Positions 37,401 to 40,400 of a stretch of DNA of 64,000 nucleotides are shown piece by piece; within the stretch, counting starts at the first letter, position 1; every line of letters begins with the position of its first letter. Origin of the DNA: Saccostrea echinata (taxonomy: Eukaryota); NCBI RefSeq assembly GCF_033153115.1, contig NW_026889763.1, positions 17,360,001 through 17,424,000 on the forward strand, in the 5' to 3' direction. The notes under the pieces were generated by a model, which was not told where the DNA came from, ran no database searches, and saw only the letters and a program-made list of their open reading frames with translations. Made by a program: the position numbers and the translations under genes.

Positions 37401-40400
37401 ACCTGTGGTCAAAATTCAGCCGCTTTGATGGCGGTTGGATTTCATTATGCTTGAAATCCAATTGGCGCAATTTTGACAAGTAACCATTTGCTGAGGGATA
37501 CTGTTGTCTCCAGGTCCCCCAGCTCTGATATGGTTTGTTTAATATTTGTGAATGCTATGCTGCCAAAAGCTTACAAGTGGTAAGATCGGCGCATAGGGCA
37601 TGAACATGCGAGTGGCATGTTAACTGTGAATGTAATTTGTAATAAAAAGCCATGACAGTTCCGCCAATATGAGTTGTATTATTCTTCCAAATTCTACAAG
37701 GTACATTTATGAAGTGTCTTGCATAAGAAAAATTCAAAAGCTGAGGTTATCAACCTTTAATAAAGTGTTCTTATTAGTGTTAGGAATTTCGAAATAATCA
37801 GATTTATCCCTAAAAGATAAATACAGTTATTGAGAATGACGCTTATTGCTTTCTATTTTGAAATTACGTATTGCTTACAAAGAGCAACCCGTTTTCCGGA
37901 ATTATATGGTCCTATCATGACGATTCTATGGTTAATAATACATCAGCATTAATGAGCATGCGCTAGGTCTTTTCAACTCCCCATCTTGTTCAGAGCAGAC
38001 GAAATCCCCTCCCTTCCCTCCCTTAAATATTATGGTTGGTTTGAGTTTTTAAATTTATTAAATAAATGTTTTTGGTTCCTTTTCTGCTGTGTGCTTTCTT
38101 TCAATTTCAGAAATCGTCTTGGCTTATATACTGATGAAGAATACTGTGGACTTCGCTGTGAATGTGATAATCCTGACTGTTTTGTGTTAGCGCAATTTTG
38201 ACAAGTAACCATTTGCTGAGGGATACTGTTGTCTCCAGGTCCCCCAGCTCTGATATGGTTTGTTTAATATTTGTGAATGCTATGCTGCCAAAAGCTTACA
38301 AGTGGTAAGATCGGCGCATAGGGCATGAACATGCGAGTGGCATGTTAACTGTGAATGTAATTTGTAATAAAAAGCCATGACAGTTCCGCCAATATGAGTT
38401 GTATTATTCTTCCAAATTCTACAAGGTACATTTATGAAGTGTCTTGCATAAGAAAAATTCAAAAGCTGAGGTTATCAACCTTTAATAAAGTGTTCTTATT
38501 AGTGTTAGGAATTTCGAAATAATAAAGTATAGTTTTTTCATACAATTTATTTTAGCCGAATACGATTCATTCGTTTATACATGTAATTTGTAACCTTTAA
38601 CGCTAATGTTAACTTGACAGTCATCCCAAAGAACGTACGTAGAATAAAACCTGTCTTTGTATGGTGCCAGAATTCGGTCTTTGTACATGTAACACTACTT
38701 TCGCTGGCCTCTGATTCACATGATTCAGGTATACATATTGAAACTATCAGAAGCAGGAGTTCTCGACTTTCAATTTTTTAATCTATGAATGAAAACGTTG
38801 TTTAAGAAATGATGCAAAACACTATTGAGCAACTGAAAGCAAGTGTACAGTACTCGCAAGAGGTTTTAATGTTGCTCAAAGCACCATTTCTCGCCAGAAA
38901 ACAAACACCACCAGCATGGTACAACAATTAATGAGCAAAAATCTGGCAGACCACCCGTGACATCATGCGCAGCAGCACAGGGTTGCGTCATCTTCATCAA
39001 CGTTCCTCGTCTACAGTATTATCAGTTCATGTTCAAATGCCTACAGACATTACACGACTCATAATAACAGACAAGAATAATGAAGCGAGTGACTCAGATG
39101 ACCTAAAATGGTTGATTTGTATAATTTTGCGTTGGTGTCCTCATTTATTCAGGACACACAGACAAGGCAGTTACAATATGCCATAAATAATTGCACTACT
39201 ATACCGAAAGCGAGAAACCGCAATTGTTTTGATTTTGCTAAAAATGGTCTTTTTTAGTTTTTACATTCATTTTCATTTCTTTTAAACTTAATATGTATTT
39301 TTTTAATTTTAATTTTTTAATTTTTAATTTCAAATAATTAATAGGGATCCTGGGGGCTGAAACTTCTTGAGTAACATTCTATTTTAGCAGAAGTGTAAGC
39401 TCTCCAGGATTTTGGTTTCTTTTAATTAATATATTTTTGTTTTATTTATGTTGCCCTCACCCAATAACAATTACAATACAATTTCAATAACAATTCTGTA
39501 ACAACACAGATCTTTCAATGTAAGTAGGGACTGGCGCAATCACATGCAAGGCTTTTCTTAAACTTCCATTATTACTACAATAAGTGCTTTTTAATAAGAC
39601 TTCTTTGGTTGAAAGTAGTGCTTAATCTTTTTTTCAAATATTTTTTTTTTCTTTTTTCAAAGCAAAAACTTTTTGTTGCAAATTTTCCTTTTCTTTATTA
39701 ATCATTGGACTTTTTATATGTTTTTTTTTATTTACTATGTTTGTGTTATATATGTGTATGTGTGTTTATCATGCTGGACATTTGTAATATATTTGTTTCC
39801 TGTGATCTTTTATCCGTGATCGGTTTAAGAACTTTACAGAGCCCACGATATTTGTTACTGTATTTATGTACAAAATGCCGACTTTAGATAAAATTTACTT
39901 TCTTGCTTACTGACTTACTTATGGTAACTCTACACATATTTTGAATATAACAGAAAAATGAAGGAAATTTGGATTCAGAACGAAGACGATCGTTTTAAGG
40001 CATTATGATGATGAAAAAGGTGGTGATAATGAACAGTGATCGATCTTTAAAAAAAAATAAAAACCTACAAACAATAAAATCTGTCAACAGGGCATTAAAC
40101 AACGACCCCCAGAAATTCTAGAGGTGGGATCAGGTGTCTAGGAGGAGTAAGCATCCACTGTCGACAGGTCACATCCGTCGTGAGTCCTAGGTATTGATCA
40201 GGTAGACGGAATATTCCGTAGTCAAATATGGTATAAAACAAAGACCCAACATTTGGTATGAAATATGTAAGTCAAAATACGATCCAATGATAGATTGTAT
40301 ATGCTATTATAGTCATTATAACGACCATAGAATTTACTAAACGCTTATTTAAACAAAGTTATTGAAATCCCTGTAACTTGTTTATCAGAAGTTTAAAAAT

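Follow-up and report, generated by a model that had tools for sequence, protein, structure and literature searches.

A Ngaro retrotransposon of Saccostrea echinata whose ends fit a single switch point and which may insert through a folded copy of its own joined ends

The DNA analysed here, called the window below, is a stretch of 64,000 nucleotides from Saccostrea echinata (NCBI RefSeq assembly GCF_033153115.1, contig NW_026889763.1, positions 17,360,001 to 17,424,000 of the forward strand), and it carries an ordinary Ngaro retrotransposon of about 5.35 kb with its parts in the order A1-gag-RT/RH-YR-SGNH-B1A2B2 (Table 1). Exact extension of the repeats gives 214 nt for each A repeat (33167-33380 and 37793-38006) and 334 nt for each B repeat (37465-37798 and 38190-38523). 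All four ORFs lie on the + strand. ORF1 has no Pfam match, the RNase H part of the second ORF was recognised from its sequence and has no Pfam match of its own, and a search of the four ORFs gave no Pfam match to a methyltransferase domain. The termini are direct repeats; 129 inverted repeats were listed, and the 25 longest of them include no inverted terminal repeats with an internal complementary region as in DIRS1-like elements. The split direct repeats, the ORF set and the SGNH domain thus fit the description of Ngaro elements in the available text of PMC9210276 and PMC8547959, where SGNH-bearing members such as Xenopus DIRS-53_XT have the same A1-ORFs-B1A2B2 arrangement, the same gag-like, RT-RH, YR and SGNH parts, no target-site duplication (TSD) and no methyltransferase. 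In architecture the window element does not differ from these; the cut point, target logo and folded junction described below are absent from the available text of the two papers.

Table 1. The element, its parts and its immediate flanks, in window positions.
Feature	Positions	Strand	Remarks
Host-derived AATAA box, left end (target half-site)	33167..33171	+	Variable among left ends
Ngaro-type tyrosine-recombinase retrotransposon	33172..38522	+	5351 bp; limits from the inferred cut AATAA^T
A1 repeat	33172..33380	+	Opens with spacer-box-loop-box-spacer-box, 33172-33205
ORF1, gag-like by position	33313..34062	+	Cys/His-rich C-terminus; gag label putative
RT/RNase H ORF	34028..35683	+	PF00078, E 1.7e-16
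Tyrosine recombinase (YR) ORF	35557..36561	+	PF00589, E 5.5e-9; open; R/K/H/R/W/Y motifs
SGNH/GDSL hydrolase ORF	36680..37312	+	PF00657, 24.4 bits (cutoff 23.6)
B1 repeat	37465..37797	+	Exact repeat extension
Internal B1/A2 junction, predicted hairpin attachment site	37793..37831	+	Fold, covariation
Junction, left half	box AATAA 37793-97; inferred cut 37797/37798; spacer 37798-803; box TTATC 37804-08		
Junction, right half	loop 37809-15; box GATAA 37816-20; spacer 37821-26; box TTATT 37827-31		
A2 repeat	37798..38006	+	Exact repeat extension
Unique 183-bp segment, A2 to B2	38007..38189	+	
B2 repeat, ends in element-derived AATAA	38190..38522	+	AATAA in 24/24 right ends
Host side past the cut	38523..38531	+	+1 T, host spacer, T at +8 (38530)

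Some other features of the locus may be recorded here. The first ATG of the SGNH frame (36680-37312) does not come before the middle of the domain. A 94-nt direct repeat (32692-32785 and 40258-40351, 71% identity) flanks the element, two inverted clusters of 22-bp GGCGGCC-type repeats at 31271-31801, about 335-410 nt apart, resemble the ends of a small non-autonomous element, and the interval 58001-59000 has a strong G and A skew (GC skew 0.44, AT skew 0.32) and is probably a simple repeat. The predicted structure of the YR (pLDDT 92.9) has Cre as its best fold match (Z 21.9, rmsd 3.7, 276 aligned residues), followed by XerA, integron integrase and XerH at Z 17-18, the integron integrase 2a3v giving Z 17.4 with rmsd 3.6 over 249 aligned residues. 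An IntI-like recombinase is not indicated by this model, whose predicted fold is nearer to Cre.

AATAAT stands at the left end of the element (33167-33172), at the right end (38518-38523) and at the internal joint (37793-37798), where it forms the 6 nt that the A and B repeats share. The sequence-only reading of this DNA had pointed out all three, together with the overlap of B1 and A2, and had taken the joint for an attP-like, preformed copy of the circle junction; the joint is indeed a copy of the joined ends. That reading went on to propose homology-dependent recombination at a 6-bp AATAAT core, but is AATAAT such a core? Searches of the element's own genome (923 Mb) yielded 24 insertions of the window family with both ends, unpaired ends being left out; a search with the junction of a diverged AGTAAT subfamily gave almost no further copies. 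Every one of the 24 right ends finishes in AATAA and every left end has T at +1, and the host side of the left end reads TAA at -3 to -1 in 21/24, while the two outer positions of the box vary (A in 11/24 at position 1 and in 17/24 at position 2). The left and right hexamers differ in 17/24 copies and are identical in 7/24, so far in agreement with the earlier statement that no classical TSD is made. Only 7/24 copies have AATAAT at both ends. With TAA held fixed about one such copy is expected from the background (p 3e-5), and AATAAT is therefore the modal target and not a required core. The hexamer by itself is common, with 84 occurrences on the + and 86 on the - strand of the window (1.3 per kb per strand). 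What the ends do fit is one switch point directly after TAA, with TAA as a preference of the kind expected of a binding box.

The same comparison was made in other families. Of 150 YR matches 100 were fetched, 31 of them had the full repeat layout, and 14 further families were obtained, with 56 left and 58 right ends after six duplicate or misassigned rows had been dropped; the spacer was no part of the motifs with which right ends were sought. Compared with the junction of its own element, each left end matches at +1 (56/56, 12 of them with C) and at +2 to +8 (55-56/56), and the host has TAA before the cut in 38/56, the others reading TAT (8), TAC (3), TTA (2), CAA (2), TAG, TCT and TGA. The right ends match the junction at -3 and -2 in 58/58 and at -1 in 57/58, and at +1 agreement falls to 24/58. 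Since 18/56 host sides are not TAA and the right-hand TAA is kept in 57/58, identity of the trinucleotide is not required. The element's 6-nt spacer is inherited on the left side only; it is found on the right in 0/58 ends of the other families and in 0/24 of the window family (0/82), and host and element spacers are identical at 0-4 of 6 positions in all 82. The exceptions are old or microsatellite copies ending 1-2 nt before TAA (L300, L311, L314-316, L323, L207, L230). It is thus very probable that nearly all ends, in the window family and the 14 others, derive from one switch point, AATAA^T, and we infer that TAA is a box for the recombinase rather than a homology core.

Several points on individual copies bear mention. 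Several families insert in (TA)n microsatellites (L207, L230, L232/L323, L327), where the right end may read 1-2 nt short; two groups of loci (L254, L255, L258, L260; L289, L290) represent families in which the apparent first element base after TAA is G, not T or C; and a sibling of family F222 has many near-identical B repeats (L364-L378, 82% to the F222 query), an apparent recent burst. One insertion (copy C1a; L021 / L006) sits in the middle of a palindromic host sequence, and the same 8-9 nt occur to either side of it and mimic a TSD.

Outside the box the target is only weakly specified. In the window family the host has T at +1 (18/24), +8 (18/24), +9 (16/24), -10 (16/24) and -9 (14/24); the preferences at +8 (35/58) and -9 (29/56) were replicated in the other families, those at +9 and -10 were weaker there, and the pooled values are 53/82 at +8 and 43/80 at -9, for an overall host preference of (W)TAA^N6-7 T. 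The host flank TAGGAATT, which had been thought to resemble the element's own B end and to hint at wider target-site recognition, is present (33151), but it lies 4 nt out of register and the likeness is at chance level: it occurs in 1/24 left flanks, and the probability that one or more of 24 flanks share an 8-mer by chance is 0.21. Recognition of TAGGAATT was thus rejected, and the wider recognition that does exist consists of the weak T preferences at +8 and -9.

What did the target look like before insertion? The left flank of the window element is unique in the assembly, and no paralogous empty site was found for this locus; from the cut point AATAA^T the empty allele is predicted to hold one AATAAT. 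At the site of copy C47, which lies in a repeat, 18/24 paralogous repeats (75-85% identical) have a single 6-nt interval, which reads GATAAT in 13; in the most similar paralog (85%) the interval is 5 nt long and falls in a run of A. At the site of copy C54c the closest paralog (90%) holds one AATAAT; 13/14 paralogs differ near the site, mostly by being 5 nt shorter (a 5-nt family indel), and only the closest is informative. The tandem-repeat units next to the L204 insertion are uninterrupted. With a single interval in the paralogous empty sites, insertion looks conservative and without TSD. In another copy (C54b, L085) a high-copy repeat (484 candidates) starts within about 12 nt of the right end, and the comparison of empty sites for this copy was uninformative, its right flank being the beginning of that repeat.

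The internal joint is more than a copy of the two ends. Its general layout is box^6 nt-box-loop-box-6 nt-box, in the window AATAA^TCAGAT-TTATC-loop-GATAA-ATACAG-TTATT, and the two halves could pair into a hairpin. Outside TAA the arms from 15 families form 195/300 Watson-Crick pairs, compared with 126 +/- 9 when arms are swapped among families, and 192 compared with 123 +/- 9 when the register is re-optimised. The outer pairs, which span the cut, covary (54/105 vs 31), and the bases at +1 and +2 are largely unpaired (3/30 paired in the 15 families). Ranked against 1709 other TAA sites, 13/15 junctions are in the top 0.6%; family F214 ranks at 3.9%, and the bulged junction of F199 at 29%. RNAalifold, run independently on 18 families, gave both stems and the bubble, with changes on both sides in 10/15 pairs, and a set of 38 unassigned loci yielded additional families in which the hairpin pattern emerged de novo. 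We conclude that a junction hairpin, as predicted from these sequences, has been kept across 18 related families.

The window junction itself is the weakest of these hairpins, with two Watson-Crick pairs in its spacer, and its fold taken alone is not significant (z -0.15 to -0.96 for 66- and 121-nt segments, +0.67/-0.64 for 46 nt, and -1.05). Wobble pairs as a guide to which strand folds gave no signal (15 G.T vs 16 A.C). The stems are ungapped in the 18-family consensus and bulges occur only in F199 (L199) and F248 (L248), whose unequal hairpin spacers leave bulges of about 1 nt and of 3 nt; these are candidate extrahelical bases by which the strand might be chosen.

Should the folded form be the substrate, pairing would be expected between the first base of the host and the base opposite +1 in the far arm, and host ends were therefore compared between families with G and with T at that opposite position. 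In the first set a pyrimidine stood at host +1 in 35/39 ends of G-opposite families and in 9/23 of T-opposite families; on a tree of the families of this one genome, 5/7 G-opposite families fall in one clade. A first small held-out set from G-opposite families had C, A and A at host +1. A larger one was then judged by a rule fixed beforehand (pyrimidine for G-opposite, A-rich for T-opposite), with ends from two G lineages that do not belong to that clade and from a single T lineage: F224 gave 10 right ends from 29 loci (4 junctions, 4 duplicates and 11 matches short of TAA dropped; one end seen before), F232 gave 9 from 20 loci (2 junctions, 1 microsatellite and 8 short matches dropped), and the F222 search gave 19 new right ends. 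The purine/pyrimidine rule failed on these held-out ends, with a pyrimidine in 15/19 vs 14/19 (p 1.0). Host +1 C was found in 3/19 G-opposite vs 0/19 T-opposite ends when only held-out ends are counted (p 0.23), in 17/60 vs 0/44 when all ends are pooled (p 3e-5), and in 3/19 vs 0/44 when the two G lineages outside the window's clade are set against all T-opposite ends (p 0.024). A Watson-Crick/wobble rule by which the far arm would influence the first host base thus has partial support from these counts.

Our preferred reading is that the element's YR inserts it through the folded B/A junction, with one pair of strands exchanged from the single switch point, and we give this a probability of roughly 0.6. 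A copy of the B/A junction, folded as a single strand or as a cruciform, would be cut by the YR at AATAA^T, and its host partner would be a site carrying a TAA box. The first host base would be checked for Watson-Crick or wobble pairing against the far arm of the hairpin, one pair of strands would be exchanged, and the remaining junction would be resolved, probably by replication or repair. Tyrosine recombinases usually cut with box^spacer polarity, and by this polarity the cut would fall on the sense strand. Taken separately, the exchange of one strand pair is likely, and we lean towards the folded junction as its substrate. The finding of 0/82 element spacers on the right, together with the lack of permuted copies (none of 59 copies with both ends has a junction upstream of the ORFs), favours a folded junction, a single strand pair and resolution by the host; from a symmetric double-stranded circle, whose two junctions are equal, permuted copies should also arise, and their number, 0 among 59, counts for the folded junction. 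For DIRS-1 first-strand cDNA is antisense (available text of PMC7192593), and with the proposed cut on the sense strand a displaced second strand or a cruciform would then be needed.

The main rival, which we consider unlikely, has the double-stranded circle junction as the substrate, with one strand pair exchanged, a stalled Holliday junction resolved by host enzymes or replication, and a hairpin that serves some other step (RNA/cDNA folding, strand transfer or packaging); the hairpin could serve RNA or cDNA processing. This rival also accounts for a switch at one point and for a spacer inherited on one side, AATAA-N6-TTATC is symmetric as a duplex and is already a simple box-6bp-box site, the enzyme is Cre-like, the window hairpin is weak, and double-stranded integration is favoured for VGJ-type phages in the available text of PMC3089051. 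It leaves unexplained why host +1 C tracks the base in the opposite arm (17/60 vs 0/44), why the outer pairing covaries across the cut, why a bubble lies next to it and why permuted copies are absent.

In print, DIRS-type elements are described as double-stranded circles whose junction, 3 bp long, recombines with a target that has the identical trinucleotide (DIRS1-like elements, in the accessible portions of PMC3266345 and PMC7192593), and such a two-strand, homology-dependent exchange at an identical core, of 3 bp there and of the 6 bp AATAAT in the sequence-only reading, agrees with TAA on both sides in 21/24 window-family copies and with the enrichment of AATAAT. As a model of obligatory homology it is largely refuted by the 18/56 left ends without host TAA at elements whose right TAA is kept, and the host and element spacers differ throughout; we regard it as improbable. 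Conjugative transposons exchange strands over mismatched overlaps, their coupling sequences, and the heterologous spacers seen here, as well as the fold relationship of the YR to Tn1549 integrase (Z 16.1), would suit a two-strand exchange over a mismatched 6-nt overlap with subsequent repair in which the same strand is retained every time. Random segregation would however leave the element spacer on about half of the right ends and none of 82 has it, so that a fully one-sided repair bias is needed, and this explanation is very improbable. That an AT-rich hexamer was duplicated in the classical way, with the internal match due to chance, is suggested by the identical hexamers of the window copy and the commonness of AATAAT, but it is refuted by the comparison of ends (hexamers differ in 17/24, and on the right the sequence is that of the element and does not vary) and by the recurrence of the same switch point in 15 families, and is hardly credible.

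How does the preferred reading, insertion through the folded junction, compare with known systems? DIRS1-like elements, according to the same portions of those papers, likewise have an internal copy of the joined ends overlapping at a short A/T-rich motif, YR integration and no TSD; the window element differs in having direct rather than inverted repeats, a host trinucleotide that is not obligatory, a one-point switch at the border of box and spacer, and a covarying four-box junction hairpin. In layout the junction resembles that of CTXphi, for which the available text of PMC3089051 describes recombination of attP(+) with dif by XerC, where opposed sites pair into a hairpin, one strand pair is exchanged, and Watson-Crick or wobble pairing by the cut sets the target. 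Here, too, two opposed box-6nt-box sites are able to pair as a hairpin (known from sequence and covariation only, and weak in the window family), and a TTA/TAA-ending box faces a TTAT box across about 6 nt in a dif-type layout. The pairing beside the cut, in print for CTX, is partly seen in the families studied, in the pooled contrast for C but not in the purine/pyrimidine rule. The Ngaro element differs from CTXphi, as far as that text goes, in being a retrotransposon with its own Cre-like recombinase instead of host XerC/D at dif, in its loop (5-14 nt vs ~90 nt), in its dispersed and degenerate targets, and in a pairing preference of one base. Integron attC sites are recombined as folded single strands, with one strand exchanged and replicative resolution (PMC3458562; see also PMC5027507); the proposed folded site with an unpaired stretch by the cut and the proposed one-strand exchange would be similar, as would replicative resolution, whereas conserved extrahelical stem bases and a fixed attI platform have no counterpart here and the recombinase is nearer in predicted fold to Cre than to IntI.

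PMC7192593 states, in its available text, that the specificity of the YR still lacks experimental study and that PCR did not detect the circular junction, and the available portions of PMC4157794, PMC6681497 and PMC3783388 hold no target-site information. The literature searched, which did not extend to the founding Ngaro papers and supplements, contained no folded-junction model for Ngaro or DIRS elements; the present analysis contributes the exact position of the cut, the inheritance of the spacer on one side, a target logo and part of a rule for the far arm. Whether, for Ngaro elements at large, a folded single-stranded junction, one-strand exchange and a TAA box with one-base far-arm pairing should replace the model of a double-stranded circle with 3-bp homology seems to us an evenly balanced question. 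If they should, single-strand tyrosine recombination would extend to animal retrotransposons, in a eukaryotic, Cre-like form that retrotransposons carry and that corresponds to the integration of CTXphi and of integrons, and repeat libraries should set the ends of elements at TAA^. The cut position, the site layout and a proposed folded substrate of ~40-60 nt make YR integration accessible with purified YR and oligonucleotides.

Not all copies carry the internal junction. In the other families 26/59 copies (within L194-L293) have the form A-ORFs-B without it, and the window family includes A-ORFs-B forms (L092, L105, L106, L107) as well as short A-B forms (L093, L097). Such junction-less copies may have arisen by deletion between B1 and B2 or between A1 and A2, or directly from intermediates with one junction.
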